Under the pieces are notes generated by a model. It saw only the letters and a program-made list of their open reading frames with translations. It did not search any database and was not told the origin of the DNA. A stretch of 64,000 nt of DNA from an uncultured Actinomycetes bacterium (lineage in GTDB: Bacteria; Actinomycetota; UBA4738; HRBIN12). Numbering within the stretch: position 1 is the first letter of the stretch; each line of letters starts with the position of its first letter. A program made the translations under genes and the position numbers. The DNA is taken from the NCBI GenBank assembly GCA_963816425.1, contig CAWFKP010000006.1, forward strand, positions 272,278-336,277. Reading direction: 5' to 3'. This document shows, piece after piece, positions 6,894 through 37,101 of the stretch.

Positions 6894-7109
6894 ATGACCT
6901 GGGGCAATGCGGTCGTTCGAGCGATCGCGATGTTCGCCGTCTGCGTGGTGCTGTTCGCCGTCGTCCCCGGGTACCTGCTGACGTACCTCACCATCCGGAC
7001 GAGCGCGACGGTGCGCGACCTGCTGGTCATGGGCTGGTGGACCGTCGGGTTGCTCTTCGCCCTGTGGCTCTTCGTTCGGCTGCAACGCACGCGGGAGCGG
7101 GCCGGGTGA
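6894..7109 (+). CDS. small integral membrane protein (2 predicted TM helices), translationally coupled to the GltD-like gene
   Basis: 71-aa ORF, hydrophobic (AIAMFAVCVVLFAVVPGYLLTYL / WWTVGLLFALWLFV); its stop TGA 7107-7109 overlaps the GTG 7106-7108 of the next gene. Confidence 0.4.
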   Translation: MTWGNAVVRAIAMFAVCVVLFAVVPGYLLTYLTIRTSATVRDLLVMGWWTVGLLFALWLFVRLQRTRERAG

Positions 7110-8968
7110 GCGCCTTCCGCCCGCACACCGTGGATGGCGATTGGTTCGACGCGAACGTGCCGTGCACGCGCGCCTGTCCGGTCTTGACGAACGCGGGCCG
7201 CTACGTCGCCGCGATCGCCGCCGGCGACGACGAGCTCGCCTACGACATCGCGCGACTGCCCAACCCGTTCCCTTCGATCTGTGGTCGCGTGTGCGCGGCC
7301 CCCTGCGAGCTGGCCTGCCGCCGCGGCACGATCGATCAGCCGATCGCGATCCGGGCGCTCAAGCGCTTCGTCTGCGAGAGCTTCGGTGTCGAAAGTGCCG
7401 CGGGTACCGACGCGTATCGGCGAGCCGTCATGCAGCTCCCGACGCGAGACGAGCGCATCGCGATCGTCGGCGCAGGGCCCGCGGGGCTCGCCGCCGCGCA
7501 CGATCTCGCCGGCTACGGGTACCGATCCGTCGTCTTCGAGGCACAGCGCGAGGCCGGCGGCATGATGGTGCTTGGGATCCCGCCGTACCGACTCCGTCGC
7601 GACCTCCTCGACCTGGAGATCGCGGCGATCCTCGAGATGGGAGTCGAGCTGCGCACGGGGCAGCGCCTCGGCCTGGACTTCACCATCTCGTCTCTGCGCG
7701 ACGAGGGCTTCGCTGCGATCTTCGTCGCCGTCGGCGCAACGCGCAGCAGGGATCTGCAGATCCCCGGCGTCGAGCTCGACGGCGTGCTCAAGGCGGTGGA
7801 CTTCTTGTTGAACGTGAACCTCGGGTACGAGGTCAACCTCGGCGAGGACGTCTTGATCGTTGGCGGGGGCAACGTTGCCCTGGACGCTGCGCGCTCCTCA
7901 CTGCGCGCGGGCCGCACGGCAGGCTCGGAGGGCTCCTTCGACGTCGAGGGCGTGGGGGCTGCGGAGGCGATGGGGTCCGTCGCGACGGCGACGCTCGACG
8001 TCGCACGGACGGCGATGCGACAGGGCGCCCGTCGCGTCCGCTGTGTGATGCTCGAGAGCCGTGCCGAGATGCCTGCGAGCGAGTTCGAGATCGAGGAGGC
8101 CGAGATCGAGGGCATCGAGTTCCTCCATCGTCGCGGCCCAGAGGCGATCGTCGGGACCGACCATGTCGAGGGACTGCAGACGCTCGACGTGGCGTCTGTC
8201 TTCGACGAGAACGGCCGGTTCGCGCCCGATCTGATCGCGGGCACTGAGCGCACGCTGGACTGCGACTCGGTGATCCTCGCAGTGGGACAGACCTCCGACC
8301 TCTCGTGGATCGACGACGCCGACGGGATCGAGACGTCGCCGCGCGGCACGGTGGTGGTCGATCGCGAGACGTTGGGGACGACGGCGGCCGGTGTGTACGC
8401 GGGCGGCGACCTGGCGTTCGGCCCACGGAACCTGATCGACGCGATCGCCGACGGTCGACGTGCGGCCGCCTCGATCTATCGCCTCCTCAGCGGCGAGGAA
8501 GCGCCGCGGCCGCGTCTCGAGGGCCGGCGCATGCTGCCGATCGTCGAGGTGAACCGGGGTCCGCGCGCCGACGAGTACACCGAGCGCGCCCGCGTGCCGG
8601 TTCCCTCGGAGCCGACCGGCCGACGCATCGGCTCCCCCGAGGTTGAGCTGGGGTTCACCGAGGAGGAGGCGCGGCTCGAGGCCGGCAGGTGCCTGCAGTG
8701 TTTCCTCAACATCATGTTGGACCCGGAGCGCTGCATCCTGTGTCGCGGCTGCGCCGACGTGTGCCCCGAGCGCTGCATCACGATCCTGCCGGCCGAGGAG
8801 ATCGAGGGCCTCAAGCCCGAGACGCCGTCGGCGGTGCTCGTGCTGCAGGAGGAGCGGTGCATCCGGTGCGCGCTGTGCGTCGAGCGGTGTCCGACGAACG
8901 CGCTGACGCTCGAGGGCTGGTCGGAGGCCTCGACCGCCCCCATCGCGCTGGAGGTGCTGCCGGGATGA
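7106..8968 (+). CDS. GltD-like NAD(P)H/FAD oxidoreductase fused to a C-terminal 2x[4Fe-4S] ferredoxin domain
   Basis: N-terminal Cys cluster (CTRACP...[14 protein letters not shown]) as in glutamate-synthase small-subunit family. Two Rossmann motifs ([14 protein letters not shown]; [13 protein letters not shown]). C-terminal CLQC...[15 protein letters not shown] and [12 protein letters not shown] ferredoxin motifs. Confidence 0.8.
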
Positions 8969-8981
8969 GCGGGGGATCGCG

Positions 8982-9797
8982 ATGAGCTCGAAGGACCGCT
9001 CGGTGCGCGACAGCGCGTGGTATCGGGCGATCGTGCACCCGGGCAAGGTCTACGGTGGCGAGATCTACCGGTCTGCGATCCGGCACCCACCCCCCACGAC
9101 GCCGCGCGGGCGGGCGATGACCTCGTTCCAGAACTTCTTCCTCCACATCTACCCGGTGAAGGTGCCCCGCGAGGTGATCAAGGGTCGGACAACACTGCGG
9201 CTCGGGTTCATCGCGGCGGTCCTGTACGGCATCCTGTTCGTCTCGGGGACCTACCTGATGTTCTTCTACCGCCCGACCGTTCCCGACGCGTACTTCAGCA
9301 TGCACGACCTGTCGACGACGGTGGCGTTCGGCAGCTTCGTCCGCAACGTTCACCGATGGTCGGCACACCTGATGGTGATCGTGGTGCTCGCGCACCTGAT
9401 CCGGGTCTTCTACGCCGGGGCGTATCGGCGGCCGCGCCAGTTCAACTGGGTGATCGGGGTCGTGCTGCTGGTGCTGACGCTGCTGATGTCGTTCACCGGC
9501 TATCTGCTTCCGTGGGATCAGCTCGCGTTCTGGGCGATCACGGTCGGCACCAACATCGCCGGGTACGTGCCGGTGATCGGTACCCAGGTTCGCAACTTGC
9601 TGCTCGGCGGTCCCGAGGTCTCGAGCGCCGCGCTGCTGCGCTTCTACGTCTTGCACATCTACTTCTTGCCCGCCCTGATCACCGTGCTCGTCGCGGTGCA
9701 CATCTGGCGGGTTCGGAAGGACGGATTCGCCGTCAGCGACCGCACGAAGGTGTCGGCCGCCCAGTCCGGACAGGAGCACGCCGATGCCCACGAATGA
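8982..9797 (+). CDS. qcrB: cytochrome b6-type subunit (N-terminal half of split cytochrome b)
   Basis: Track ORF; 13-nt gap after previous gene with GGGGGA RBS. Conserved cytochrome b helices A-D ([36 protein letters not shown]); ends after helix D. Confidence 0.85.
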
Positions 9798-10293
9798 ACC
9801 TGAGCCTCGCTACCGACTCCTCGGGGTCGTCGAGAAGGAGGTCGAGCAGAAGGACCGGCTGGACCCGCACGACGAGGTCTTCACGTGGCCGCACCTGCTC
9901 GTGCGCCATGTGGTCGTCGCGGCCGGCACGATCGCGGTCGTCTTTCTGCTCGCCATCCTGTTCGACGCCCCGTTGAAGGAGATCGCGAATCCGAACGCCA
10001 CGCCAGAGGTGGCGAAGGCCCCGTGGTACTTCGCCGGCCTGCAGGAGCTGCTGTCCCATTTCGCGCCGATGGTGGCGGGCATCCTGATCCCGGGAGCAGC
10101 CCTCGTGTGGCTGTTCGCACTGCCGTACATCGACCGTGCGTCGGACTACCGCGCGCGCAGCCGGAAGTTCGTCGTCACGGTGTTCACGATCGTCGCCGTG
10201 CTCGCGCTCCTGCTCACCATCGTCGGCACCTTCTTCCGAGGACCCGGCTGGAGCTGGGTCCCGCCGTGGCAGCACTCGTACGCGGAGTTCTGA
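9784..10293 (+). CDS. cytochrome bc complex subunit IV (C-terminal half of split cytochrome b, PetD-like)
   Basis: Overlaps cyt b6 gene by 14 nt; [12 protein letters not shown] matches the PEWY region of subunit IV; 3 TM helices. Confidence 0.8.
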
Positions 10294-10294
10294 G

Positions 10295-10909
10295 ATGGAC
10301 GAGCACACCGACGAACACGACGCAGCGGGCGACGCACCGGTCGACCGCCGACGGTTCCTGAACGGTACGTGGAAGGCGCTCGGCGTGGTGTTGATCGCCG
10401 AGGGCGCGTGGACGAGCTACGACATCCTGCGCCCCGACACGAGTCAGGGGGCGGGCTCGGTGATCGATGCCGGACCCGTGAGCGACTACGCAGAGGAAGG
10501 CACGGTCAAGTACTTCCTCAGCGGACGTTTCTACGTCACGCAGTTCCAGGGCGGGCTGCGTGCGCTGTATCAGAAGTGCCCGCACCTCGGGTGCCGCGTG
10601 CCCTTCTGCGACAGCTCCGGCCGGTTCGAATGCCCGTGCCACGGCAGCTACTACAACGTGATCGGGGAGTACATCCAGGGACCCGCGCCGCGCGGGATGG
10701 ATCGGTTCAAGATCTCGATCAGTGACGACGGACGGGTGCTGGTCGACACCGCGACCGTCCTGCCCGGGCCCGCGAAGGGCGTTCTGACCGGGCCCGCCGA
10801 CGCAGCGGGTCCGTCGTGCACGTCGGCGGAGGGAGAGGCCGTGGCGACGCCGAGCGCCACGCCGAACGCCCCCGATGCCAGCGCCTCGCCCTCCGGTGGT
10901 ACGCCGTGA
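10295..10909 (+). CDS. qcrA: Rieske [2Fe-2S] protein with twin-arginine signal
   Basis: ATG 10295 two nt after previous stop. RRRFLNG Tat motif. CPHLGC...CPCHGS Rieske boxes. Confidence 0.85.
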
Positions 10910-11364
10910 GCAAGGCCCCAGCGGACGACCCCGTCCTCGCTCGCTCGACCCGAAGGTGGCAGCGGGTCGGTGTCTGGCTGCTCCTGATCCTCGTGCTGTC
11001 CTTCCCGCTCTACAAGCTGACGGAGGGGTCACGGCGAGCCTCCGCCGCGCTGCTGCAGCAGCAGGCGCAGATCGCGACGGGGACGCAATTGTGGGCCGCG
11101 AACTGCGCCGTCTGCCACGGCCCGATGGGGGAGGGCGTCAGCGCTCCCGCGTTGAACTCCCAAGAGTTCCTCACGACGGTCACCGACGCGCAGATACGCG
11201 ACATCATGCGCGGCGGCATCCCGGGCACCGAGATGCCCGCCTGGCTCAACGACTACGGCGGACCGCTGACCGAGGAGCAGATCCAGGCACTCGTTGTGTA
11301 CATCCGCTCGTGGGAGGCGACGGCGCCGGCGCGCCCGGACTGGCGCACGCCGAGCGGCGGATAG
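10906..11364 (+). CDS. membrane-anchored monoheme c-type cytochrome
   Basis: GTG 10906 overlaps Rieske stop (GTGA). One TM helix ([14 protein letters not shown]) then CAVCHG heme-binding motif. Confidence 0.75.
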
Positions 11365-11373
11365 GAGATCGAG

Positions 11374-13437
11374 ATGGCACGCGGATCATTGCTGCGCACG
11401 CGAGCTCGCGGCTTCGTGATGCTCGCGGCCGTCCTCGCCCTGGGGAGCTGCTCCGTGCAGTCGCAGGGGATCGGCGAGACGGTCGCGATGATCCCGGGAT
11501 ACGCGGGCGGCGGAGCAGCTCCGAGCGGGCCGCCGATCCAGGGCTACGACGCGCCGATCCCCGTCATCCAGGTCGGGCTTTCCGAGACCGACGCCACCCA
11601 CATGGCGATCGACCTGTCCCAGCCCTTTGCCCCCCAGGGCAAGGTGTCGTTCCTCGTGACCAACAACGGGGCCAAGAAGCACGAGTTCGTGGTGCTTGCC
11701 ACCGACACCGCGGCGGCTTCCTTCCCGATCGTGAGCTTCGAAGGTGAGGCCAACCGGATCGATGAGGACGCCAAGGGTGTGACCAACGTCGGGGAGACAG
11801 GCGACATGGAACCGGGTGCGGTGATGATGCTGACCTTGGACCTGGCCCCGGGCCACTACGCCGTGGTCTGCAACCTCCCCGGGCACTACGCGATGGGCAT
11901 GCACCAGGACTTCTTCGTCACGCCCACCGCCTCCACGCCGGTCAGCGTCGGGCTGTCCGAGACCGACGCCACCCACATGGCGATCGACCTGTCCCAGCCC
12001 TTTGCCCCCCAGGGCAAGGTGTCGTTCCTCGTGACCAACAACGGGGCCAAGAAGCACGAGTTCGTGGTGCTTGCCACCGACACCGCGGCGGCTTCCTTCC
12101 CGATCGTGAGCTTCGAAGGTGAGGCCAACCGGATCGATGAGGACGCCAAGGGTGTGACCAACGTCGGGGAGACAGGCGACATGGAACCGGGTGCGGTGAT
12201 GATGCTGACCTTGGACCTGGCCCCGGGCCACTACGCCGTGGTCTGCAACCTCCCCGGGCACTACGCGATGGGCATGCACCAGGACTTCTTCGTCACGCCC
12301 ACCGCCTCCACGCCGGTCAGCGTCGGGCTGTCCGAGACCGACGCCACCCACATGGCGATCGACCTGTCCCAGCCCTTTGCCCCCCAGGGCAAGGTGTCGT
12401 TCCTCGTGACCAACAACGGGGCCAAGAAGCACGAGTTCGTGGTGCTTGCCACCGACACCGCGGCGGCTTCCTTCCCGATCGTGAGCTTCGAAGGTGAGGC
12501 CAACCGGATCGATGAGGACGCCAAGGGTGTGACCAACGTCGGGGAGACAGGCGACATGGAACCGGGTGCGGTGATGATGCTGACCTTGGACCTGGCCCCG
12601 GGCCACTACGCCGTGGTCTGCAACCTCCCCGGGCACTACGCGATGGGCATGCACCAGGACTTCTTCGTCACGCCCACCGCCTCCACGCCGGTCAGCGTCG
12701 GGCTGTCCGAGACCGACGCCACCCACATGGCGATCGACCTGTCCCAGCCCTTTGCCCCCCAGGGCAAGGTGTCGTTCCTCGTGACCAACAACGGGGCCAA
12801 GAAGCACGAGTTCGTGGTGCTTGCCACCGACACCGCGGCGGCTTCCTTCCCGATCGTGAGCTTCGAAGGTGAGGCCAACCGGATCGATGAGGACGCCAAG
12901 GGTGTGACCAACGTCGGGGAGACAGGCGACATGGAACCGGGTGCGGTGATGATGCTGACCTTGGACCTGGCCCCGGGCCACTACGCCGTGGTCTGCAACC
13001 TCCCCGGGCACTACGCGATGGGCATGCACCAGGACTTCTTCGTCACGCCCACCGCCTCCACGCCGGTCAGCGTCGGGCTGTCCGAGACCGACGCCACCCA
13101 CATGGCGATCGACCTGTCCCAGCCCTTTGCCCCCCAGGGCAAGGTGTCGTTCCTCGTGACCAACAACGGGGCCAAGAAGCACGAGTTCGTGGTGCTTGCC
13201 ACCGACACCGCGGCGGCTTCCTTCCCGATCGTGAGCTTCGAAGGTGAGGCCAACCGGATCGATGAGGACGCCAAGGGTGTGACCAACGTCGGGGAGACAG
13301 GCGACATGGAACCGGGTGCGGTGATGATGCTGACCTTGGACCTGGCCCCGGGCCACTACGCCGTGGTCTGCAACCTCCCCGGGCACTACGCGATGGGCAT
13401 GCACCAGGACTTCTTCGTCACGCCCCAGGCGGCATAG
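11374..13437 (+). CDS. lipoprotein with five tandem cupredoxin (type-1 copper) domains
   Basis: LALGSCS lipobox. Five 125-aa repeats each with H(EF)...C-N-L-P-G-H-x-x-M-G-M ligand pattern of blue-copper sites (KHEFVV...VVCNLPGHYAMGMH). Confidence 0.8.
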   Translation: MARGSLLRTRARGFVMLAAVLALGSCSVQSQGIGETVAMIPGYAGGGAAPSGPPIQGYDAPIPVIQVGLSETDATHMAIDLSQPFAPQGKVSFLVTNNGAKKHEFVVLATDTAAASFPIVSFEGEANRIDEDAKGVTNVGETGDMEPGAVMMLTLDLAPGHYAVVCNLPGHYAMGMHQDFFVTPTASTPVSVGLSETDATHMAIDLSQPFAPQGKVSFLVTNNGAKKHEFVVLATDTAAASFPIVSFEGEANRIDEDAKGVTNVGETGDMEPGAVMMLTLDLAPGHYAVVCNLPGHYAMGMHQDFFVTPTASTPVSVGLSETDATHMAIDLSQPFAPQGKVSFLVTNNGAKKHEFVVLATDTAAASFPIVSFEGEANRIDEDAKGVTNVGETGDMEPGAVMMLTLDLAPGHYAVVCNLPGHYAMGMHQDFFVTPTASTPVSVGLSETDATHMAIDLSQPFAPQGKVSFLVTNNGAKKHEFVVLATDTAAASFPIVSFEGEANRIDEDAKGVTNVGETGDMEPGAVMMLTLDLAPGHYAVVCNLPGHYAMGMHQDFFVTPTASTPVSVGLSETDATHMAIDLSQPFAPQGKVSFLVTNNGAKKHEFVVLATDTAAASFPIVSFEGEANRIDEDAKGVTNVGETGDMEPGAVMMLTLDLAPGHYAVVCNLPGHYAMGMHQDFFVTPQAA
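11563..13437 (+). repeat. 5 x 375-bp direct tandem repeat; copies 2-5 read as identical at nucleotide level
   Basis: Identical sequence blocks starting 11938, 12313, 12688, 13063. Identical antisense ORFs in track at 375-bp period (11886, 12261, 12636, 13011). Copy 1 differs only at its 5' end, copy 5 at its last ~12 nt. Confidence 0.9.
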
Positions 13438-13462
13438 ACCCACTGCGGGACAAGCCCGGAGG

Positions 13463-13491
13463 TTGACACCCGGCCGCGGCGCCCGCACACT
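13463..13491 (+). promoter_or_regulatory. putative promoter (TTGACA-N17-CACACT) positioned for a leaderless transcript starting at the leader-peptide ATG
   Basis: TTGACA at ~13463-13468 and a weak -10 about 17 nt downstream; leader ATG 13501 has no SD, consistent with leaderless initiation. Confidence 0.3.
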
Positions 13492-13500
13492 GTTGTGGCT

Positions 13501-13551
13501 ATGACGAACGCAGCTGTGCTCGGACGCAGCGTCCTCGTACTTATCGCCTAG
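13501..13551 (+). CDS. ilv operon leader peptide MTNAAVLGRSVLVLIA (attenuation control)
   Basis: 16-codon ORF rich in Val/Leu/Ile codons (gtc ctc gta ctt atc) ending TAG 13549-13551 immediately before the antiterminator stem. Confidence 0.55.
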   Translation: MTNAAVLGRSVLVLIA

Positions 13552-13587
13552 GCGCGGGGGGCCCACGGGCCCGCAGACCCCCGCGCC
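13551..13587 (+). promoter_or_regulatory. antiterminator hairpin of ilv attenuator (GGCGCGGGGG / CCCCCGCGCC, 10-bp perfect stem)
   Basis: 13551-13560 pairs perfectly with 13578-13587. Shares CCCCCGC with the terminator stem, so the two structures are mutually exclusive. Confidence 0.5.
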
Positions 13588-13617
13588 AGATGCCCTCCGC
13601 CCAGCGGGGGGCTTTTT
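13578..13617 (+). terminator. intrinsic terminator of ilv attenuator (CCCCCGC...GCGGGGG followed by GCTTTTT)
   Basis: Stem 13578-13584 / 13604-13610, U-tract 13613-13617. Located between leader peptide and first structural gene. Confidence 0.55.
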
Positions 13618-13681
13618 GTATCCCGTAGCGTGCCACCGGGCCTCGACCAGCCGGGGACCCAGACAGAGAGGAGAACCACCG

Positions 13682-13999
13682 ATGCGATACGAGTTCGAAC
13701 GAGACGGCACGGTCGTCGCCAGCGTCCTGTGGGAGGGTCCCGGCCAGGTCAGCGTCGACGCGATCGATAACAGCACGCGCGCGACGGTGGACCGCTACCT
13801 CTCATCCGAGGTCGTGTACCTGGGCGGCGGGTTCGACGTCGGCGACGAGCAGGTTCCCGACGTGTTGCAGATGCGCCGGCGTGACTGGACGCCTTGGGAG
13901 TTCGAGCGGGCGTGTCGCAACCTCGCACATCGGCTGCAGGCGCAGGTGCGTCGCGTGGAGACCGGGCCCGTGGAGGCGCGCGAGGTGGTCGCGGGATGA
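13682..13999 (+). CDS. hypothetical 105-aa protein, first gene after the ilv attenuator, translationally coupled to ilvB
   Basis: Strong RBS GAGAGGAG 9 nt upstream of ATG 13682. High GC3 codon bias. Stop TGA 13997-13999 overlaps ilvB ATG 13996 (ATGA). No recognisable domain. Confidence 0.55.
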
Positions 14000-17310: not shown

Positions 17311-19018
17311 TGACCACCGCAGACCCCGACGTACCGGGCTCAAGTAGCGAAGCGGTAGCCCGTGAGATGCACCGGGCTCAAGTAGCGAAGCGGTAGCCCG
17401 TGAAGATGCACCGGGCTCAAGTAGCGAAGCGGTAGCCCATGCAGATGCACCGGGCTCAAGTAGCGAAGCGGTAGCCCGCAAAGACGTCGTCCGGATCTTC
17501 GACACCACGCTGCGCGATGGCGAGCAGGCGCCCGGGATCGCGCTGAGCCGGGCCGAGAAGGTCGAGATCGCCGAGCAGCTCGCGCGACTGAAGGTCGACA
17601 TCCTCGAGGCCGGGTTCCCGATCTCGGGGCAGGGCGAGTTCGAGGCCGTCCGCGAGATCGCCGATTCCGTGCGCGGGCCGGTGATCGCGGCGCTCGCGCG
17701 CACCGCGACCGGCGATATCGAGCGCGCCGCCGAGGCGCTCAAGGGCGCCGAGCATTGGCGGATCCATACGTTCATCTCGACGAGCGACGTCCAGCGCGAG
17801 TCCATGTTGAAGATGAGCTACCAGCAGGTACTCGACGCCATCGAGGCGAACGTGACCCTCGCCAAGGGCTACACGGAGGACGTCGAGTTCAGCGCGCAGG
17901 ATGCCACCCGCACCGAGTTGGCGTTCCTGCTCGAGTGCTACCGCCTCGCGGTGCGCTGCGGCGCGACCACGATCAACGTGCCCGACACGGTCGGCTACGC
18001 GACCCCGACGGAGTTCGGCGAGCTGATCCGGATCGTGCGCCAGGAGGTGCCCGACGAGGTCGTGATCTCGACCCACTGCCACAACGACCTCGGGCTGGCC
18101 GTCGCCAACGCGCTGGCCGGCATCGAGAACGGCGCACGCCAGGTGGAGGTGGCGGTCAACGGGATCGGCGAGCGGGCTGGGAACTGCTCGCTCGAGGAGA
18201 TCGCGATGATCGTGCGTACCCGTCGCGCGCACCTCGGCGTCCAGCACGGGCTGAACGTCAAGGAGATCACGCGCACGTCCCGGCTGGTCGCGATGACCAC
18301 GGGCTACAGCGTGCAGCGGAACAAGGCGGTCGTCGGCACGAGCGCGTTCGCGCACGAGAGCGGCATCCATCAGCACGGGGTGCTCGCCAACCGCGCGACC
18401 TACGAGATCATGGATCCCGTCGAGATCGGGCTCGAGGGGAACCAACTGGTGCTCGGCAAGCACAGCGGGCGCCACGCGTTCGTCGACGCCCTGGACAAGC
18501 TCGGCATCACGCTGGACGACGCGGCCCTCAACCGCGCGTTCACGCGGTTCAAGGACCTGGCCGATCGCAAGGTGCAGCTGACCGACCAAGATCTGTCCGC
18601 GATCGTCGCAGAGGAGCTCGGGGCGACGGACGAGGACGCGCTGGTGCTCGAGTCGCTGCAGATGGGCGGCGGCACGCACCTCCAGCCTCGGGCCACGGTC
18701 CGACTACGCAGAGGCGAGGAGGTGATCGAGGAATCCGCGATCGGCGACGGCTTGATCGACGCGGCGATGGGGGCCATCGCGCGTGCCGCCGAGGTCGAGG
18801 GTCGACTCGCGAGCTTCCACGTGTCCGGGGTCACCGAGGGCACCGACGCGCTCGGTGACGTGGTCGTCCAGCTGGACATCGACGGTCGCCGTGTGACGGG
18901 CCGCGGAGTCGCGACCGACGTCGTCGAGGCGAGCGCCCGCGCATACCTCGCGGCGGTGAACCGCGCCCTGCAGGTCCAGGCCAAGGACGCCGGCCAGACC
19001 AACGAGGTCACGCCGTGA
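17310..19018 (+). CDS. leuA: 2-isopropylmalate synthase; 5' end disrupted by a 1-nt frame change in the first tandem-repeat copy (uninterrupted frame only from 17366; next canonical start GTG 17669)
   Basis: RIFDTTLRDGEQAPGIALS... HxH/LeuA catalytic region is in frame 2 but no ATG/GTG/TTG lies between stop 17363-17365 and the RIFDTTLRDGEQ box. ATG 17310 overlaps ilvC stop (TGATG) and would be in frame if copy 1 were 39 bp like copies 2-3. Confidence 0.75.
17333..17478 (+). repeat. 38/39-bp direct tandem repeat (3 full copies + partial 4th), unit ACCGGGCTCAAGTAGCGAAGCGGTAGCCCGTGA(A)GATGC
   Basis: Copies at 17333-17370 (38 bp), 17371-17409 (39), 17410-17448 (39), 17449-17478 (partial). Encodes DAPGSSSEAVAxx 13-aa units in the leuA frame. 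Confidence 0.85.
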
Positions 19019-20069
19019 CGGACCGCTCCCACACGATCGGGGTGATCCGCGGCGACGGTACCGGCCCGGAGGTGGTCGGCGAAGGTCTCAAGGTGCTCGA
19101 CGCCGTTCGCGACTTCGACGTGACCCTCGTGGACTTCGATCTCGGCGCCGATCGATACCTGCGCACGGGGGATGTGCTTCCCGACGAGGAGCTCGCGCGG
19201 ATCGCCGAGATGGACGCGGTGTTCCTCGGGGCTGTCGGCGACCCGCGGGTGCGGCCCGGCATCCTGGAGCGCGACCTGTTGCTCAAGATCCGGTTCCAGC
19301 TCGACCAGTGGGTGAACCTGCGCCCGGTCGTGCGGTATCCGGGCGTGGCCACGCTCGTGCCGAGCCACACCGAGGACGACGTGAACTTCGTGGTGGTTCG
19401 GGAGAACTCCGAAGGGCTCTACAGCGGCGCGGGCGGCTTCCACCGGAAGGGCACGCTGCAGGAGGTCGCGGTGCAGGAATCGATCAACACGCGCCACGGG
19501 GTCGAGCGGATCGTGCGCTACGCGTTCGAACTGGCCGCTTCCACCGCTCGGCGCGGCACGCTCACGCTCGTGCACAAGACCAACGTGCTGACGTTCGCCG
19601 GCGATCTGTATCAGCGGGTGGTCGATGAGGTCGCCGGGAGTTCCCGCAGGTCCAGACCGACTACGTGCACGTCGACGCCGCGTGCATCTACTTCCTGGAC
19701 GCGCCGGGGCGGTTCGACGTCATCGTCACCGACAACATGTTCGGCGACATCATCACGGACCTCGGGGCGATGATCCAAGGCGGGATGGGCATCGCCGCCG
19801 GCGGCAATATCAACCCCGACGGCGTGTCGATGTTCGAGCCGATCGGCGGCACCGCGCCGAGCGAGACGGGCAAGGGCACGATCAACCCACTGGCCGCGAT
19901 CGGCGCGATGGAGATGCTGCTGCGCCAGTTGGGCGAGCCGGAGGCGGCCGCAAGGATCGACCGCGGCGTCCGAGCGGCGACCGGCCGGATGAAGAGCATG
20001 CGCGCGGGCGAGATGGGGTTCTCCACGGCGCAGGTCGGCGATCTCGTGGTGGAGGGCGCGACGGCATGA
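19015..20069 (+). CDS. leuB: 3-isopropylmalate dehydrogenase, frameshifted in this sequence at a G-run (~19636-19638)
   Basis: Track ORFs 19015..19773 and 19665..20069 together give a full LeuB (MTDRSHTIGVIRGDGTGPEV... / ...EFPQVQTDYVHVDAACIYFLDAPGRFDVIVTDNMFGDIITD). Restored by GGG->GGGG. ATGA overlap with leuA stop. Confidence 0.8.
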
Positions 20070-21655
20070 GCGAGGTGTCCGCCGTCCGCGTCGAGCTCTA
20101 CGACACGACGCTTCGCGACGGCGCGCAACAAGCGGACCTGTCCTACACGGTCGAGGATCGGCTGCGCATCCTGCACAAGCTCGACCAGGTCGGCTTCCCC
20201 TTCATCGAAGGGGGGTGGCCGGGCGCCAACCCGCGCGACACGGAGTTCTTCCAGCTCGCGATGAAGGAGACACTCCAGCATGCGGAGCTGACCTCGTTCG
20301 GCATGACCCGCCGCGCCGGGGAGCGAGCCGATGCGTCGCAGGCCCTGCGCGATCTGCTGGAGGCCGGCACCGAGGTGGTCTGCCTGGTGGGCAAGGCGTG
20401 GGACCTGCACGTGACCGAGGCCCTGCGCACCGACCTCGTCGAGGGCGTCGCGATGGTGCGCGATTCGGTGACGTTCCTCCGCGCACAGGGTCGCCGGGTG
20501 TTCTTCGACGCGGAGCACTTCTTCGACGGCTACCGAAGCGATCCCGCCTTCGCCATGCAGGTGATCGCCGCGGCGGAGGAGGCCGGCGCCGAACGGCTCG
20601 TGTTGTGCGACACGAACGGGGGCATGCTGCCGTTCGACATCGCGGACATCGTGCGAGCCGTCGGCGACCAGGCGTCGGCACCCCTGGGGATCCACGTGCA
20701 CAACGACGCCGGGTGCGCGGTGGCGAACTCGCTGGTGGCAGTCGATGCCGGCGTGCTCCAGGTGCAAGGCACCGTCAACGGCTACGGCGAGCGCACTGGC
20801 AACGCCGACATCGTCCCGATCACGGCCGATCTCATCCTGAAGATGGGCGTGACCGACGCGCTCCCCGACGGGTCGGTCGCGCACCTGACCGAGCTGGCGC
20901 GCTACGTCGCCGAGATCGCGAACCTGTCGCCGGAGGCGCGGCAGCCCTATGCGGGCAGATACGCGTTCACGCACAAGGCGGGGCTGCACACCAGCGGCGT
21001 CGCCCGAGTGTCCCGGGCCTACGAGCACGTCGCCCCCGAGTCGGTGGGCAACCGGCGCGGGGTGGTGGCGTCGGACTACAGCGGCGGCGCCTCGATCCGG
21101 ATGAAGGCCGAGGAGTTCGGCCTCGATCTCGGGGAGGCCGCGATCCCCGCCGCGGTCGAGCAGCTGAAGGAACGAGAGGCCCGCGGCTACACCTTCGACA
21201 TCGCGGAGGCGTCCTTGGAGCTGCTGCTCCGTCGCGCCGACGGTTGGGCGCAGGCCTTCTTCGAGGTCGAGAGCTACCGGGTCCATGTGGAGGAGCGCGC
21301 GGGCGACGAGCCCTTGGCCGAGGCGACGGTCAAGGTGGTGACCGAGGGGACGCGACATATCGAGAGCGCCGAGGGCCAGGGTCCCGTGGGCGCCTTGGAC
21401 AACGCGCTGCGGAAGGCGCTGACCAACGACTACCCGCAGCTCGACGACATGGAGCTCGAGGATTTCCGCGTCCGGGTGCTCGATCGCAGCGTGGGAACGG
21501 GCGCGGTCGTGCGCGTGCTGATCGACATGTCCAACGGCGAGGGCGAATGGACCACGGTCGGCGTGAGCGAGAACATCATCGAGGCCTCGTGGGAGGCGCT
21601 CGTGGACGGCTACACGTACGGCCTGTTGCATCCGCGGGAGCACGTGGAGGACTGA
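20066..21655 (+). CDS. cimA: citramalate synthase / LeuA-type-2 family (isoleucine via citramalate)
   Basis: ATGA overlap with leuB stop. VELYDTTLRDGAQQ...GGWPGANPRDTEFF signature of the CimA/LeuA_allo subfamily, distinct from the leuA above. Confidence 0.65.
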   Translation: MSEVSAVRVELYDTTLRDGAQQADLSYTVEDRLRILHKLDQVGFPFIEGGWPGANPRDTEFFQLAMKETLQHAELTSFGMTRRAGERADASQALRDLLEAGTEVVCLVGKAWDLHVTEALRTDLVEGVAMVRDSVTFLRAQGRRVFFDAEHFFDGYRSDPAFAMQVIAAAEEAGAERLVLCDTNGGMLPFDIADIVRAVGDQASAPLGIHVHNDAGCAVANSLVAVDAGVLQVQGTVNGYGERTGNADIVPITADLILKMGVTDALPDGSVAHLTELARYVAEIANLSPEARQPYAGRYAFTHKAGLHTSGVARVSRAYEHVAPESVGNRRGVVASDYSGGASIRMKAEEFGLDLGEAAIPAAVEQLKEREARGYTFDIAEASLELLLRRADGWAQAFFEVESYRVHVEERAGDEPLAEATVKVVTEGTRHIESAEGQGPVGALDNALRKALTNDYPQLDDMELEDFRVRVLDRSVGTGAVVRVLIDMSNGEGEWTTVGVSENIIEASWEALVDGYTYGLLHPREHVED

Positions 21656-32211: not shown

Positions 32212-35200
32212 ATGAGGAGCCGTACGGGTTCCACGCCAGACGGAACCACCGACCCCGACCGATCGAGGCGCCCGAACGTGTCTGACCCGGCTGTGCAGCC
32301 CCAAGCTCCCGCTGCCATCCATCCCGTGCACGCGGCGCTGGCCGAGCGGATCGAGACGACCGTCCCGCCCGAGCGCCGAGACGCGCTGCTCGCCTTTGCT
32401 CGGATGATGCTCCGGCGTCTGAGCGCCGAGGACCTCACCACGCGCGGGGTCGACCAGCTGCTCGGCATCGTCCGATCCGCCTTCGCGTTCGTCGATGCGC
32501 GCGGCAACCACCCGGCGATCGTGCGGGTGTTCGTGCCGACGATCGACCGCGACGGCTACCTGGTTCCGGGCACGATCATCGAGACGAACACCGACGACTC
32601 GCCGTTCCTGGTGGACTCGGTCACCGAGGAGCTCGCGGCGCGCAACCTGGGCGTGCGGCTGATCGTGCACCCGATGATCGGGACGGCTCGCGCCGAGGAC
32701 GGCCACCTGGAGCGGGTCATGTCCGGCCGCGACGCGGCCCACCGAGAGTCGTTCATGCACTTCGAGCTGGAGCGACGGCTCGCCGAGCAGGATCGCGTGG
32801 ACCTCGAGGGCAGGATCCGGGCGATCCTGCACGACGTGCGCCTCGTGGTCCGCGACTTCGAGCCGATGCAGGCGCGGGTCCGCCACATGGGGGAGATCGC
32901 ACGGCAGGCGACGGTGATCTACAGCCCGCAAGAGGTCGGCGAGACGGTCGACTTCGTGGAGTGGCTGCTACAGCTGAACTTCGTCTTGCTCGGCTACCGC
33001 GAGTACCGGATGGCCGACGGACCCGAGGGACGCACGATCCAGGCGGTGCCGGGCTCGGGGCTCGGCATCCTCGCCGACGTGTCCGCCAGCTCGTTCTCCG
33101 ACGCGACGCCGCTCAACTCGCTCGACCCCGACGTCCGCCGGCGGATCGAGGAAGGCGAGCTCCTCGTCATCACCAAGACGAAGGCCTACAGCACGGTGCA
33201 CCGGCGCGCGCGCATGGACTACGTGGGCGTGCGGATCATCTCCCCCGAGGGTCAGGTGGTCGGGGAGGCCCGGCTGATCGGGCTGTTCACATCGAAGGCC
33301 TACATGGAGCCGGCGGCCAAGACGCCGCTGCTGCACCACAAGCTCGAACAGATCATCGCCGCGGAGGACCTCATCCCCGGTTCGCACGACTACAAGCAGG
33401 TCATCGAGCTGTTCGAGTCGTTCCCGCGTGACGAGCTGTTCCAGGCGACCACGGAAGAGCTCCGACAGCTGGTCGTCGGTCTGCTGCAGCTCGAGAAGCA
33501 CGGCGGCATCCGGGTGCTGTTGCGCAAGGATCTCTACGGCCGGCAGGTGTCGATCGTCGTCGCGTTGCCGCGCGAGAAGTTCAGCGCCTCGCTCCGCAAG
33601 CGCCTTCAGGAGATGTTCCGTGAGCGGTTCGGCGGGACCTCGATCGATTACCACCTGTCCCTGGGCGAGACCGAATCGGCCCGCATCTTCTTCACGGTGC
33701 ACGTCGAGACGGGTGTCCAGATCCCGGAGATCCCATACGAGGAGTTGGAGGAGGAGGTCGAGCGACTCGCGCGCACGTGGGACGACGACCTGCTCGACCA
33801 CCTGACCGAGATCCTCGGGCCCGAGCGCGGACCGTTGCTTGCCGCGCGCTACGGCCCGCGGTTCCCGGACTACTACAAGACCACCGAGACGGACTGGACC
33901 CAGGTGGCGATGGACGTCGCCAGCCTCGAACAGCTCTCCAGCGACAGCGATGGCTTCGTGATCGGCATCGGGAATGAGGACGTCGGTGAACGACTGACCC
34001 GGGTGAAGCTCTACAAGACCGGCGGCAAGGTCGACCTCTCCGCCTTCATGCCGCTGCTCGAGTCGCTCGGCCTGCGCGCCGTCGAGGAGATCCCGATCGC
34101 GCTGCACGGCGAAGGCCGAACCTACATCCACGACTTCGGCGTCCTCGATGCCCGCGGCGCGGTGCTCAATCTCGAGGCCGAGGCCGATCTTGTGCGCGAT
34201 GCGCTCACCGCCATGTGGCGCGGCGACGCCGAGGTCGACTCGCTCAACCGGCTCGTGATCTTCGCGGACCTGTCCTGGCCGCAGGTTCACATCCTGCGCG
34301 CCTATCGCAAGTATCGGATGCGGGTCTCGACGCGGTTCACCGAGGAGTACCGCAACGACGCGCTCGCCGAGAATCCGCACATCGCACGCCGGCTCGCCCA
34401 GCTGTTCGAGACGAAGTTCGATCCGATCCGGGACGCACCCGCCACCGACGCCGACGAGCTCCGCCAGCAGATCAAAGAGGATCTCCGGGCGGTGGCGTCG
34501 CTGGACCAGGATCAGATCATCCGATCGCTCCTAGGCACGATCGAGGCGACGGTGCGCACGAACGCCTACCTGCCCGACCGACCCGCGCTCGCATTGAAGT
34601 TGCGATCGGCAGACGTTCCCGAGATGCCGAAGCCGTTCCCGCTGTTCGAGATCTTCCTGTACTCCTCGCAGATGGAGGCGATCCATCTGCGGGGCGGCAT
34701 GATCGCGCGCGGCGGCATCCGCTGGTCGGACCGCAAGGAGGACTACCGCACCGAGGTGCTGGGCCTGATGAAGGCCCAACGCGTGAAGAACGCGGTGATC
34801 GTGCCCGACGGCTCGAAGGGCGGATTCATCCTGAAACGCTCGACCAGCTCCCCGGCGGAGCTGAAGCAGGAGGTCGTGACCCAGTACGTCACCTTCATGC
34901 ACGGGTTACTCGACATCACCGACAACCTCGTGCGCGGTGAGGTGACCCATCCCGCGGGCGTGCGCGTGCTCGACGGCGACGATCCCTACCTCGTGGTCGC
35001 CGCCGACAAGGGTACGGCGACCTTCTCCGACACCGCCAACGCCGTGAGCGAGGAATTCGGCTTCTGGCTGGGCGACGCGTTCGCCTCGGGCGGCAGCGCC
35101 GGCTACGACCACAAGGCGCTGGGGATCACGGCGCGCGGCGCCTGGGAGTCGGTGAAGCGGCACTTCCGCGAGCTCGGTGTCGACGTGTTGCGCGACTCGT

Positions 35201-37101
35201 TCACGTCGGTCGGGATCGGGGACATGTCGGGCGACGTCTTCGGCAACGGCATGCTGTACAGCGAGACGGTCAGGCTGCTCGCGGCCTTCGACCATCGCAA
35301 CGTGTTCGTCGACCCCGAGCCGGACGCGTCGGCCTCGTTCGCGGAGCGGCGGCGCCTGTACCTGCTGGCGGGGTCCTCCTGGAACGATTACGACCGCACG
35401 CTGCTGTCGCCCGGCGGGGATGTGTTCGACCGACGGGCGAAGTCGGTGGTGCCATCCAAGGAGGCGCGGGTGGCGCTGGGGATCCCCGACGAGGTCGCCG
35501 AGGAGATGACCCCCGACGAGCTGATCCGATGGATCCTGCAGTCGCCGGTGGATCTGCTGTGGAACGGCGGGATCGGCACGTACGTGAAGTCCTCGCGCGA
35601 GACGCAGGCGGACGCGGGCGACCGGACGAACAACAGCGTGCGCGTCAGTGGGTCGCAGGTGCGCGCCCGGGTCGTGGGCGAGGGCGGCAACCTCGGGTTC
35701 ACGCAGCGCGGGCGGATCGAATACGCGCTCGCGGGCGGTCGGATCAACACCGATTTCATCGACAACTCGGCCGGGGTGGACACCTCCGACCACGAGGTGA
35801 ACTGGAAGATCTTGCTCGGGCTCGCGATCCAGCGCGGCGAGCTGACGTTGGACGGTCGAAACGAGCTGCTGCAGGATTGCGCGCCCGACGTCGTCCAGCT
35901 CGTCCTATACGACAACTACCTGCAGGCCCAGATCCTGTCGCAGGAAGACGAGGTCTCGACCCAGCGCGTCGAGGCCTACGAGGACCTGATGGTGCAGCTC
36001 GAGGCCGACGGCGAGCTCGAGCGTGCGGTCGAGTTCCTACCGACGACCGACGAGATGCTGGAACGCCGCGGCGCGGGCCGGGGGATGACGCGGCCCGAAC
36101 TCGCCGTCCTGCTGGCGTATGCGAAGCGGCAGGTCTTCAACGAGCTCGTCGACTCGGATCTGCCCGACAGCGACTACCTGGCGTCGGATCTCGAGCGGTA
36201 CTTCCCGCCCAAGATCGTCGAACGGTTCGGGCATCTGCTCGCCGAGCACCCGTTGAAGCGCGAGATCATCGCGACGATCGCGTCCAATGACGTCGTCAAT
36301 TCCCAGGGCATCACGTTCGTGTCGCGCATGGTCGCCGAGACCGGGGTGTCCCACGCCGACGTCGTGCGCGCGTTCCGCATCGCGCGCGACATCACCGGCG
36401 CGGTCGGCCGCTGGGGCGACATCGAGGCGCTCGACGGCATCATCGACCCGGGCGTGCAATCGGAGCTGCTGAGCGGGGTGGACTGGCTCGTCGAGACGAC
36501 CTCGAGGTGGTACCTCGTGCAGGGCGCGGGGCAACGGCTGGCCGACGCGGTCGAGCAGTCGCGCGCATCCTTCGCCGAGGTGTCGGACGCGATCAGCCAG
36601 ATCGGCCCGGAGGCCTGGCGGGACGAGCACGAGCATGCGGCGCGGCGACTCGTCGCCGAAGGCGTGCCCGAGACGGTGGCCCACCGCCACGCGTTCCAGC
36701 CCGAGCTGGTGCACGCGCCGGACATCATCGCGGTCGCGCACGCCACCGGCCGCTCGCCGCTCGAGGTCGCCCGCGGGTTCTTCGTCCTCGGCGAAGCGCT
36801 CGACATCGACTGGCTCGAGACGCAGCTCGAGCAGCTGACCGCGACCACCCGCTGGCAGCGGTGGGCCCAGCAATCGATGGAAGACGATCTCTTCGCTCTG
36901 CGCCGCAAGCTCTGTGAGCGAGTCTTGGAGGCCGCGGGCGGCGCGCCGATCGACGAGGCGATCGAGCAGTATCTCTCCGAGCGCGGCCCCGCCTTCGAGC
37001 GCGTCGATCGCTTCCTCCGAGGCCTGAAGATGGAGGGCGTGTCAGACCTGTCCCAGTTAACGGTGGCGTTGCGTCAGATCAGGTCGCTCGCGGGCGCGTG
37101 A
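32212..37101 (+). CDS. NAD-specific glutamate dehydrogenase (large ~180-kDa GdhB type)
   Basis: 1629-aa ORF; central GDH catalytic region (GGIRWSDRKEDYRTEVLGLMKAQRVKNAVIVPDGSKGGFI...) and long N/C extensions characteristic of the Bac_GDH family. Confidence 0.85.
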   Translation: MRSRTGSTPDGTTDPDRSRRPNVSDPAVQPQAPAAIHPVHAALAERIETTVPPERRDALLAFARMMLRRLSAEDLTTRGVDQLLGIVRSAFAFVDARGNHPAIVRVFVPTIDRDGYLVPGTIIETNTDDSPFLVDSVTEELAARNLGVRLIVHPMIGTARAEDGHLERVMSGRDAAHRESFMHFELERRLAEQDRVDLEGRIRAILHDVRLVVRDFEPMQARVRHMGEIARQATVIYSPQEVGETVDFVEWLLQLNFVLLGYREYRMADGPEGRTIQAVPGSGLGILADVSASSFSDATPLNSLDPDVRRRIEEGELLVITKTKAYSTVHRRARMDYVGVRIISPEGQVVGEARLIGLFTSKAYMEPAAKTPLLHHKLEQIIAAEDLIPGSHDYKQVIELFESFPRDELFQATTEELRQLVVGLLQLEKHGGIRVLLRKDLYGRQVSIVVALPREKFSASLRKRLQEMFRERFGGTSIDYHLSLGETESARIFFTVHVETGVQIPEIPYEELEEEVERLARTWDDDLLDHLTEILGPERGPLLAARYGPRFPDYYKTTETDWTQVAMDVASLEQLSSDSDGFVIGIGNEDVGERLTRVKLYKTGGKVDLSAFMPLLESLGLRAVEEIPIALHGEGRTYIHDFGVLDARGAVLNLEAEADLVRDALTAMWRGDAEVDSLNRLVIFADLSWPQVHILRAYRKYRMRVSTRFTEEYRNDALAENPHIARRLAQLFETKFDPIRDAPATDADELRQQIKEDLRAVASLDQDQIIRSLLGTIEATVRTNAYLPDRPALALKLRSADVPEMPKPFPLFEIFLYSSQMEAIHLRGGMIARGGIRWSDRKEDYRTEVLGLMKAQRVKNAVIVPDGSKGGFILKRSTSSPAELKQEVVTQYVTFMHGLLDITDNLVRGEVTHPAGVRVLDGDDPYLVVAADKGTATFSDTANAVSEEFGFWLGDAFASGGSAGYDHKALGITARGAWESVKRHFRELGVDVLRDSFTSVGIGDMSGDVFGNGMLYSETVRLLAAFDHRNVFVDPEPDASASFAERRRLYLLAGSSWNDYDRTLLSPGGDVFDRRAKSVVPSKEARVALGIPDEVAEEMTPDELIRWILQSPVDLLWNGGIGTYVKSSRETQADAGDRTNNSVRVSGSQVRARVVGEGGNLGFTQRGRIEYALAGGRINTDFIDNSAGVDTSDHEVNWKILLGLAIQRGELTLDGRNELLQDCAPDVVQLVLYDNYLQAQILSQEDEVSTQRVEAYEDLMVQLEADGELERAVEFLPTTDEMLERRGAGRGMTRPELAVLLAYAKRQVFNELVDSDLPDSDYLASDLERYFPPKIVERFGHLLAEHPLKREIIATIASNDVVNSQGITFVSRMVAETGVSHADVVRAFRIARDITGAVGRWGDIEALDGIIDPGVQSELLSGVDWLVETTSRWYLVQGAGQRLADAVEQSRASFAEVSDAISQIGPEAWRDEHEHAARRLVAEGVPETVAHRHAFQPELVHAPDIIAVAHATGRSPLEVARGFFVLGEALDIDWLETQLEQLTATTRWQRWAQQSMEDDLFALRRKLCERVLEAAGGAPIDEAIEQYLSERGPAFERVDRFLRGLKMEGVSDLSQLTVALRQIRSLAGA

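Follow-up and report, generated by a model that had tools for sequence, protein, structure and literature searches.

Auracyanins A and B of Chloroflexus and Roseiflexus (Protein Data Bank, PDB, entries 1qhq/1ov8, 2aan and 6kol) are membrane-tethered blue-copper carriers serving a quinol-oxidising complex; they are single-domain proteins, and their partner is Alternative Complex III, not a Rieske/cytochrome b complex. Sulfocyanin (SoxE) of Sulfolobus and Ferroplasma and rusticyanin of Acidithiobacillus are blue-copper links between a Rieske/cytochrome b-type complex and an oxidase, or between Fe(II) and bc1. Several cupredoxin domains also occur together in ceruloplasmin, laccases and NirK, but these proteins are compact, with trinuclear or type-2 sites at the domain interfaces, and the blue copper protein families surveyed in archaea have 1–3 domains (PMC9038741). 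Here we describe a gene in a stretch of 64,000 nucleotides (nt) from an uncultured Actinomycetes bacterium (contig CAWFKP010000006.1, positions 272,278 to 336,277), the whole of which is referred to as the window. A single plus-strand open reading frame (ORF), 11374–13437, encodes a protein of 687 amino acids (aa) that is separated from the auracyanins by its five domains per chain, encoded by identical DNA repeats; from ceruloplasmin, laccases and NirK by an autonomous predicted type-1 site in each domain of a linear chain; and from sulfocyanin and rusticyanin by its multi-domain build, its scores under the equivalog cutoffs and its hosts, which are soil Actinomycetes rather than acidophiles. 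We read the locus as a repeat array under concerted evolution that encodes a lipid-anchored five-copper electron carrier of a Rieske/cytochrome b complex, and we give this joint reading a probability of about 0.62. Cupredoxin carriers, multi-cupredoxin proteins and the concerted evolution of surface-protein repeats are already known; new here are the chain of five autonomous type-1 domains, the 100% DNA identity combined with a near-constant count, and the gene's fixed place among the subunit genes of a b6-type complex linked to NAD(P), in soil Actinomycetes. A literature search for tandem or multidomain cupredoxins tied to Rieske/cytochrome b operons in Actinomycetota found nothing specific and no description of this family.

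Tandem Repeats Finder reported one array at 11572–13425, with a period of 375 nt, 4.9 copies, 99% matches and zero indels, and five in-register copies at 100% were counted by the repeat finder. Compared base by base, the period-375 identity covers exactly this interval (1854 nt) with a sole mismatch at 11580, where unit 1 has T (CTT) and the other units have G (CTG), both coding for Leu. Counted from the natural unit starts (11572, 11947, 12322, 12697 and 13072), units 2–4 are 100% identical over 375 nt, while unit 5 is identical for 354 nt and then ends in 12 nt of its own (CAGGCGGCATAG). The presence of four exact 375-nt copies cannot be a matter of chance. The initial annotation, which was made from the sequence alone, used a register (11938–13437) shifted by 9 nt from the natural one and took copies 2–5 to be 100% identical; this is true of copies 2–4, whereas copy 5 has 8 mismatches in its last 12 nt. 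It also placed the differences of copy 1 in the first ~25 nt only, and they do lie at the start, but comprise 8 positions within the first 18 nt. The rest of its description of the array is accurate.

A 796-aa antisense ORF (11386–13776, minus strand) was considered as a coding candidate and rejected. Its G+C content at third codon positions (GC3) is 0.65 against 0.91 in the plus frame, the latter resembling the neighbouring genes, and the Pfam matches to it are spurious, none having a significant stretch. The array is also overlapped on the minus strand by four antisense ORFs of 98 aa, identical to one another, at 11886, 12261, 12636 and 13011. Because of the GC3 of 0.65 and the absence of real domain hits, we take the antisense ORFs over the array to be non-coding and to have arisen as a side effect of the GC-rich repeat.

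A scan in which each GTDB species was represented by a single genome gave 40 loci with the operon (L001–L040), nearly all of them from uncultured Actinomycetes or Actinomycetota of soil. Most are Microflora Danica long-read metagenome-assembled genomes (MAGs), made from Nanopore reads with Flye --meta and one Medaka round at a median read N50 of 6.1 kb (PMC12313526). A protein search returned 37 relatives, many of which are about 690 aa long, 67–79% identical to the window protein and composed of internally identical domains. Five units are present in 26 of the 29 complete long-read loci, four in L014 and L015, and two in L029; the four-unit and two-unit arrays nest within clades of all-identical units. 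In the monophyletic clade L004/L007/L021/L032 the five units are diverged (75–91% identical) and position-orthologous between species, and because of this clade we take five to be the ancestral as well as the prevailing number, with occasional contraction probably occurring where recombination is easiest. The number of units appears to be under selection.

The inner units are 99–100% DNA-identical within the genome in about 22 of 28 long-read loci, while the nearest unit from a foreign species is 72–98% identical. The comparison with the sister species L001, whose genome has 93.8% DNA identity to the window over 18 kb, is the most informative. The two genes show 122 differences: ~23 in each unit fall at offsets common to all five units, and only 3 are unit-specific; within one unit there are 16 synonymous against 4 non-synonymous codon changes. 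Identity within a genome thus exceeds that between genomes, and the lineage-fixed differences are common to all units. Because the array diverges between species at the rate of its flanks yet is homogenised within each genome, the comparison strongly supports concerted evolution of the window array with purifying selection. The initial annotation had named ongoing gene conversion among its options and had proposed comparing domain number and divergence among orthologues, and this comparison bears the idea out. Homologous recombination between units, through gene conversion and occasional unequal crossing-over, would carry each new substitution to all units far more quickly than point mutations build up, and would thus keep the units identical within a genome.

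The edge units are the least homogenised. In the clade with the pattern A-BBBB, unit 1 is only 75–83% identical to units 2–5 and is orthologous between species at ~91–93%. In L016 the units A1 and A5 are 100% identical with three different B units between them, which indicates conversion between non-adjacent units, and L013 has the order ABABA with a 744-nt super-unit. In the L004/L007/L021/L032 clade homogenisation has ceased and the number five persists. Homogenisation does not reach the end domains in the A-BBBB and ABBBA clades, and these domains are conserved from species to species, which suggests specialised entry or exit domains with interchangeable middle modules. Unit identity itself is probably not required, because the clade with five diverged units manages without it, and it is better read as a by-product of recombination.

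The nearest described parallel to the array is the group of Periscope Proteins (SasG, Rib and Sgo_0707; PMC8201768), in which tandem folded domains of surface proteins are likewise encoded by near-identical DNA repeats, recombine within the gene and are resolved by long reads only. In Periscope Proteins the repeats form stalks without cofactors, and strains differ sharply in how many they have, above all where identity is highest (PMC8201768); the repeat in the window, by contrast, is the redox domain itself and is present in five units in most loci despite 100% identity. The repeat number is five in the window, in a second assembly of the same species (L077) and in L001, and three contractions were seen in all. 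Here, then, a redox protein rather than an adhesin stalk is under concerted evolution with a near-fixed repeat number, contrary to the usual pattern, in which repeat identity goes along with variation in length.

Two other accounts of the perfect repeats were weighed against concerted evolution. One, which was also among the options of the initial annotation, is that one domain was amplified in a single, very recent event in this lineage and was not homogenised thereafter. It would explain why identity is perfect, and the two- and four-unit arrays of related MAGs do show that the unit number can change, but the window and L001 are 6% diverged and each has five internally identical units bearing lineage-specific substitutions. 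The same 1-to-5 expansion would have to have happened independently in ~20 species, the five-unit architecture is common to all clades including that of diverged, position-orthologous units, and L016 has identical units that are not adjacent; we therefore consider a single amplification highly improbable. The other account is an error of assembly or polishing, either a true locus with another copy number or non-identical units homogenised by the long-read pipeline. Perfect repeats are well known to mislead assemblers, the array is indeed collapsed in short-read MAGs of this family, the Nanopore MAGs contain indel errors, and the window's copy number rests on assemblies rather than reads. Against this, L077 (ENA ERZ25039579 contig_5619, 422 kb), an independent assembly 97.1% identical to the window over 8 kb, reproduces the five units and the same single-nucleotide polymorphism (SNP) in unit 1, of the 11580 type, and L001 also has five units. 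The long-read loci with five units include four whose 75–91% identical units cannot be mis-assembled; the array is 1.85 kb long compared with a read N50 of ~6 kb; and the substitutions relative to L001 are coherent codon by codon and mostly synonymous. The window protein lies on a 1.23-Mb contig, which points to a long-read assembly. An artefact, with the uncertain copy number that the initial annotation feared, is thus very unlikely for the window, and as an explanation of the homogenised units it is scarcely credible.

For the family in short-read data the concern about copy number is valid. The short-read MAGs L028, L030, L031, L033–L038 and L040 have 1–3 units, or start or end inside the repeat, while their long-read relatives (L017, L022, L025 and L015; 82–96% identical) have four or five. 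L034 and L033 are 93–95% identical to L025, which has five units; each has one unit, with both flanks collinear with L025 in L034 and the upstream flank collinear in L033. Similarly, the Illumina assembly L031 has two units against five in its relative L022. The family is therefore systematically mis-assembled in short-read metagenomics, and the domain counts in public catalogues are unreliable and understated.

Long-read loci have errors of another kind. The apparent 65% identity of the cytochrome c between the window and L001 was considered as hypervariability and rejected: in the cytochrome c of L001 (7525–7991) three single-base insertions shift and then restore the frame, and they are residual Nanopore indel errors. 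Several other long-read loci have similar indel errors within the array (unit lengths of 376 or 383). The operon genes of the window are intact.

The protein has five stretches matching the Pfam SoxE (sulfocyanin) domain (E 5.8e-39) in addition to Cupredoxin_1. With 133.4 bits against a cutoff of 21 for PF06525, it falls within the Pfam domain family; with 109.4 bits against 168.4 for the NCBIfam model TIGR03094 it falls outside the sulfocyanin equivalog, and the rusticyanin model TIGR03095 gave 39 bits against a cutoff of 147. The match to the azurin model was weak and under its cutoff. The claim of the initial annotation that there are five 125-aa cupredoxin domains, each with a His/Cys/His/Met set, is confirmed: H103, C166, H171 and M176, with the equivalent residues at +125n, do not vary across the five domains of 17 full-length orthologues, and the corresponding domain positions H37, C100, H105 and M110 are invariant in 23 diverse single domains. 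The copper loop reads C-N-L-P-G-H-Y-x-x-G-M, that is, C-x4-H-x4-M. The nearest solved sequence is auracyanin B (1ov8/1qhq, E 3.6e-4), with the Cys/His/Met ligand loop aligned; auracyanins are the nearest solved relatives in both sequence and fold, and have the same C-x-x-P-G-H-x-x-x-G-M loop at ~20% identity. Rusticyanin has the same ligand spacing (C138/H143/M148; PMC10654088).

An AlphaFold2 model of a single domain is all-beta with 11 strands, has a predicted local distance difference test (pLDDT) score of 93.1 and is predicted to adopt the Greek-key beta-sandwich of cupredoxins. Its top Foldseek matches are the auracyanins 6kol, 1qhq and 2aan, followed by the EfeO Cup domain, azurin and rusticyanin; those to auracyanins, azurin and rusticyanin have a probability of 1.00 and template modelling (TM) scores of 0.5–0.65. 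The full-length model has a pLDDT of 86.6 and a predicted TM score of 0.81, with pLDDT <50 (disordered) for residues 1–53. The five-domain model matches ceruloplasmin, factor VIII, laccases and NirK domain by domain only (E 1e-23 to 1e-14), with a global TM score of ~0.2 and a root-mean-square deviation of ~24 Å; the models thus point to a fold in common with the multicopper oxidases, but not to their domain arrangement. The inter-domain linkers are 7–9 residues long. The mature chain is strongly acidic, with 77 D/E against 25 K/R, and each domain has an acidic loop, FEGExNRxDED, that is invariant in the 23 diverse domains.

The N-terminus has a basic region (R3, R8, R10 and R12) and a hydrophobic core followed by A-L-G-S-C26. 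Judged by eye against [LVI][ASTVI][GAS]C and the PROSITE PS51257 pattern, ALGS-C26 is read as a lipobox, and the mature protein would begin with Cys26 in lipid-modified form. Cys26 is invariant in 12 full-length orthologues, where the contexts include LAAC, LVAC and LVGC. In the same orthologues the tether has conserved columns at T36, V37, I40, P41, Y43, G47, P54, G57 and Y58, and this motif may be a docking peptide.

Beyond the close family, an exhaustive profile search of the domain subfamily gave 5,856 cluster representatives at E <=1e-3, most of them single-domain proteins of ~170 aa. Multi-domain relatives (2–6 domains) in other lineages have diverged domains and long low-complexity linkers. 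The more distant lipoproteins P0047, P0049, P0050 and P0056, for example, have 4–6 diverged cupredoxin domains of the same subfamily set apart by long linkers rich in Pro/Thr/Ser/Ala/Gln, and in P0049 the last domain and its linker are perfectly duplicated. The multi-cupredoxin architecture is a recurring yet undescribed theme.

Table 1. Features of the operon and of the penta-cupredoxin gene in the window.
Feature	Position	Strand	Basis or remarks
NfnB/GltD-like NAD(P)-binding flavoprotein, Fer4_20 and C-terminal 2x[4Fe-4S] ferredoxin domain	7037..8968	+	Pfam Pyr_redox_2, Fer4_20, Fer4
Cytochrome b6-like subunit, four-helix b-type cytochrome, ~50-aa N-terminal extension	8982..9797	+	Pfam Cytochrome_B, E 1e-45
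Subunit IV-like membrane protein (PetD/ExtQ-like)	9784..10293	+	Pfam Cytochrom_B_C; NCBIfam ExtQ, cytb6_f_IV
Rieske [2Fe-2S] protein, CPHLGC...CPCHGS boxes	10295..10909	+	Pfam Rieske; probable start ATG 10295; RRRF twin-arginine motif
Membrane-anchored monohaem cytochrome c, single CAVCH motif, N-terminal hydrophobic helix	10906..11364	+	Pfam Cytochrome_CBB3, Cytochrom_C
Shine-Dalgarno AGGAG, 6 nt ahead of ATG 11374	11363..11367	+	Sequence
Penta-cupredoxin gene (predicted lipoprotein), final operon gene	11374..13437	+	687 aa; GC3 0.91
Signal peptide with putative lipobox (…LALGS-C26)	11374..11451	+	Sequence; lipobox rule by eye
Tether, aa 27–66	11452..11571	+	Low pLDDT; conserved motif TVAxIPxY…G…P..GY
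Repeat unit 1, cupredoxin domain 1, ligands H103/C166/H171/M176	11572..11946	+	Differs from units 2–4 only at 11580
Repeat unit 2, domain 2	11947..12321	+	100% identical to units 3 and 4
Repeat unit 3, domain 3	12322..12696	+	Repeat comparison
Repeat unit 4, domain 4	12697..13071	+	Repeat comparison
Repeat unit 5, domain 5	13072..13437	+	Identical through 13425, then own C-terminus QAA and stop
Intrinsic-terminator-like hairpin, 9 pairs (8 G-C), then TTTTTGT	13592..13621	+	155 nt past the stop codon; marks operon end

The penta-cupredoxin gene is the last of six co-oriented and tightly packed genes (Table 1) that form a translationally coupled operon, in which the GTG start of the cytochrome c overlaps the Rieske stop codon (GTGA). 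From the upstream genes, 7037–11364, we predict a Rieske/cytochrome b complex of the b6 type together with an NAD(P)-binding iron-sulfur (FeS) flavoprotein. The flavoprotein matches NCBIfam PRK12771 'NAD(P)-binding protein' with 431 bits, has its best PDB matches in NfnA 9n5u, 9bov/9bp5 (E 3e-86) and NfnI 5jca, and is presumed to be cytoplasmic because it has no signal peptide. For the cytochrome b6-like subunit the closest NCBIfam model is ExtP (257.9 bits, cutoff 290), and cytochrome b6 gave 190 bits. In the subunit IV-like protein (aa ~77–82) KAPWYF replaces the Qo-site PEWY motif of bc1/b6f, and the conserved Glu is absent.

The six-gene order is kept in L001–L035 and L037. L040, at a contig end, has five of the operon genes without the first; L036 and L039 are two contigs of one short-read MAG, in which the other five genes are opposite in orientation to the cupredoxin match; and L038 is a 1.6-kb contig with the cupredoxin only. 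The outer flanks of the operon are not conserved between loci, and no conserved neighbours beyond the six genes were found across them; in the window the operon lies among ilv/leu genes. The initial annotation had seen a dedicated electron conduit beside a cytochrome c/Rieske operon. Conserved synteny across the 40 loci favours this, but the operon is larger than was supposed, comprising the b6-type complex and the NAD(P) flavoprotein.

Two observations concern the content of individual loci. The MAG MFD10007.bin.1.78 carries the whole operon in triplicate, and the five-unit array of each copy is homogenised by itself, with 89–98% identity from copy to copy; two copies (L008 and L026) are 14 kb apart on CAVQUN010000007.1 and the third (L011) is on CAVQUN010000008.1. 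An extra, distant cupredoxin domain (38–41% identity) lies 340–600 nt downstream of the array in L015 (10002–10316) and L020 (10566–10832).

The complexes most similar to this operon are those of anammox bacteria, Kustd1480-1485 and Kuste4569-4574 of Kuenenia (PMC12954380). There, as in the window, a b6-like cytochrome b, subunit IV, a Rieske protein and an FeS NAD(P) oxidoreductase occur together, which is the combination that defines the anammox type (PMC12954380). The best solved relatives of the window Rieske protein are Kustd1480 (9rk3, E 1.7e-20) and Kuste4569 (9rk4, E 5.4e-16), identities confirmed in PMC12954380, and both rank ahead of every b6f Rieske. The window flavoprotein matches 5t5i and 9bov (identical in sequence to 9bp5), the entries behind the structural homologues in that paper. 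The likeness to Kuenenia is by direct sequence match for the Rieske protein, and by subunit type for the cytochrome b and the flavoprotein. A many-centre electron carrier is present on the positive side in both systems, but in anammox it consists of hexa- and octahaem c-type cytochromes and an HAO-like protein, and in the window of one haem c and five predicted type-1 coppers. In Geobacter, the ExtOPQ core clusters with 4- to 12-haem cytochromes, and ExtM and ExtN of the ext cluster are multihaem cytochromes rather than an NAD(P) flavoprotein (PMC5877670). For the anammox complexes it was proposed that quinol oxidation yields NAD(P)H while the second electron passes to a high-potential acceptor (PMC12954380); quinol-driven NAD(P)+ reduction is a proposal only, even there (PMC12954380).

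On these grounds the penta-cupredoxin is most likely the outward electron-carrying arm of the complex. The exported protein would be lipid-anchored via Cys26 to the cytoplasmic membrane of a monoderm actinomycete, on the outer side, and its auracyanin/rusticyanin-like domains would present five type-1 Cu(I/II) centres (His, Cys, His, Met) in a linear chain. It would exchange electrons with the Rieske centre through the membrane-anchored monohaem cytochrome c, and then store them or deliver them to a further extracytoplasmic partner, such as a terminal oxidase. Such a multi-centre carrier or reservoir may do with copper what the multihaem arm does in the complexes of anammox bacteria and Geobacter, and may be a multi-domain version of sulfocyanin, auracyanin and rusticyanin, which act singly as tethered carriers. 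Two modes were considered, copper-to-copper hopping along the chain (a wire) and independent docking of each domain (a multivalent shuttle).

Several points weigh against this reading. Cupredoxin termini are commonly at the end opposite the copper site, and adjacent coppers may therefore be too distant for fast intramolecular hopping. No terminal oxidase or other acceptor is encoded beside the operon in any locus examined, and the protein scores under the NCBIfam cutoffs for sulfocyanin, rusticyanin, azurin, CopI and EfeO. The four- and two-unit arrays in the long-read MAGs L014, L015 and L029 show that five is not obligatory. The copy number in the window is backed by independent assemblies, not by spanning reads, and all homogenised arrays come from one pipeline (Flye and Medaka), whose polishing could erase rare differences between inner units; to the latter concern it can be answered that single SNPs at unit 1 were preserved, and that the one in the window was reproduced in L077.

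Electrons might also flow in the opposite direction, with the copper chain as an entry that takes them from a high-potential extracytoplasmic donor such as Fe(II), Mn(II), reduced humics or a nitrite-level donor. They would pass through the cytochrome c to the Rieske/cytochrome b complex, working in reverse or bifurcating, and the flavoprotein would make NAD(P)H, in resemblance to the 'uphill' branch of rusticyanin, cytochrome c4 and bc1 in Acidithiobacillus. The operon holds exactly the parts of such a branch plus the NAD(P) flavoprotein, the C-x4-H-x4-M spacing is that of rusticyanin C138/H143/M148, and sulfocyanin has been proposed as the primary Fe(II) acceptor in Ferroplasma (PMC10654088). 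The acidic mature protein, the invariant FEGExNRxDED loop, which could bind cations, and a weak similarity to the EfeO Cup domain also fit. Still, a donor-specific component (porin-cytochrome, Cyc2 or multicopper oxidase) is not found beside the operon, the hosts are MAGs from neutral soil, and flow direction cannot be read from sequence; we regard electron uptake as unlikely. Farther still from the evidence is a role in copper or iron handling instead of respiration, as a CopI-like resistance protein or an EfeO-like iron-uptake protein that happens to lie beside a respiratory operon. The EfeO Cup domain is among the top fold matches, and there are weak NCBIfam matches to EfeO (a total of 156.5 bits from five Cup-like stretches) and to the CopI models NF051440 and NF047895 (60.8 and 42 bits). 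These scores are far under the curated cutoffs of 270, 280 and 200, respectively, and place the protein outside the CopI cuproproteins. EfeO is defined by a Cup plus an M75 domain, efeUOB context and at least 270 bits, but the window protein is without the M75 peptidase-like region, and no efeU/efeB or cop genes are nearby. Since the gene is also translationally linked to and strictly syntenic with the Rieske/cytochrome b genes across the 40 loci, and its complete type-1 ligand set is invariant, metal handling is improbable.

The carrier reading can be carried further, although only tentatively and with more doubt than belief. The operon may be an anammox-type complex of soil Actinomycetes that splits quinol electrons between NAD(P)+, through the NfnB-like flavoprotein, and a very high-potential outlet, or that runs in reverse from an external high-potential donor. 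The multihaem arm would then be replaced by a five-centre blue-copper chain whose count is held by selection and whose modules are kept identical by recombination. If true, a five-centre copper arm on an anammox-type complex would be a copper-based counterpart of multihaem conduits in monoderm bacteria. An anammox-type complex in ~40 soil Actinomycetes loci is noteworthy by itself: it places an NAD(P)-linked b6-type Rieske/cytochrome b complex, hitherto discussed for anammox, in widespread soil Actinomycetes with a copper outlet, and these hosts may allow the proposed route from quinol to NAD(P)H to be examined in an aerobic setting that is possibly easier to work with. Multi-centre electron transfer through copper could also be studied on such a chain, whose five identical type-1 domains would make a natural scaffold.

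Elsewhere in the window, the only tRNA in the 64 kb is a tRNA-Ala(CGC) at 47540–47626 on the minus strand (ARAGORN), which at 87 nt is unusually long for a tRNA-Ala; Rfam gave nothing at these positions at the gathering threshold, and no rRNA was found by Rfam in the window. A 39-nt unit is repeated 3.8 times (96% matches) at 17333–17478, just downstream of ilvC, and holds a CGGGCT…AGCCCG inverted repeat. In the ilv/leu region there are two adjacent LeuA/HMGL-like paralogues (17669–19018 and 19625–21655), and a bacterial NAD-glutamate dehydrogenase of 1629 aa is encoded at 32212–37101.

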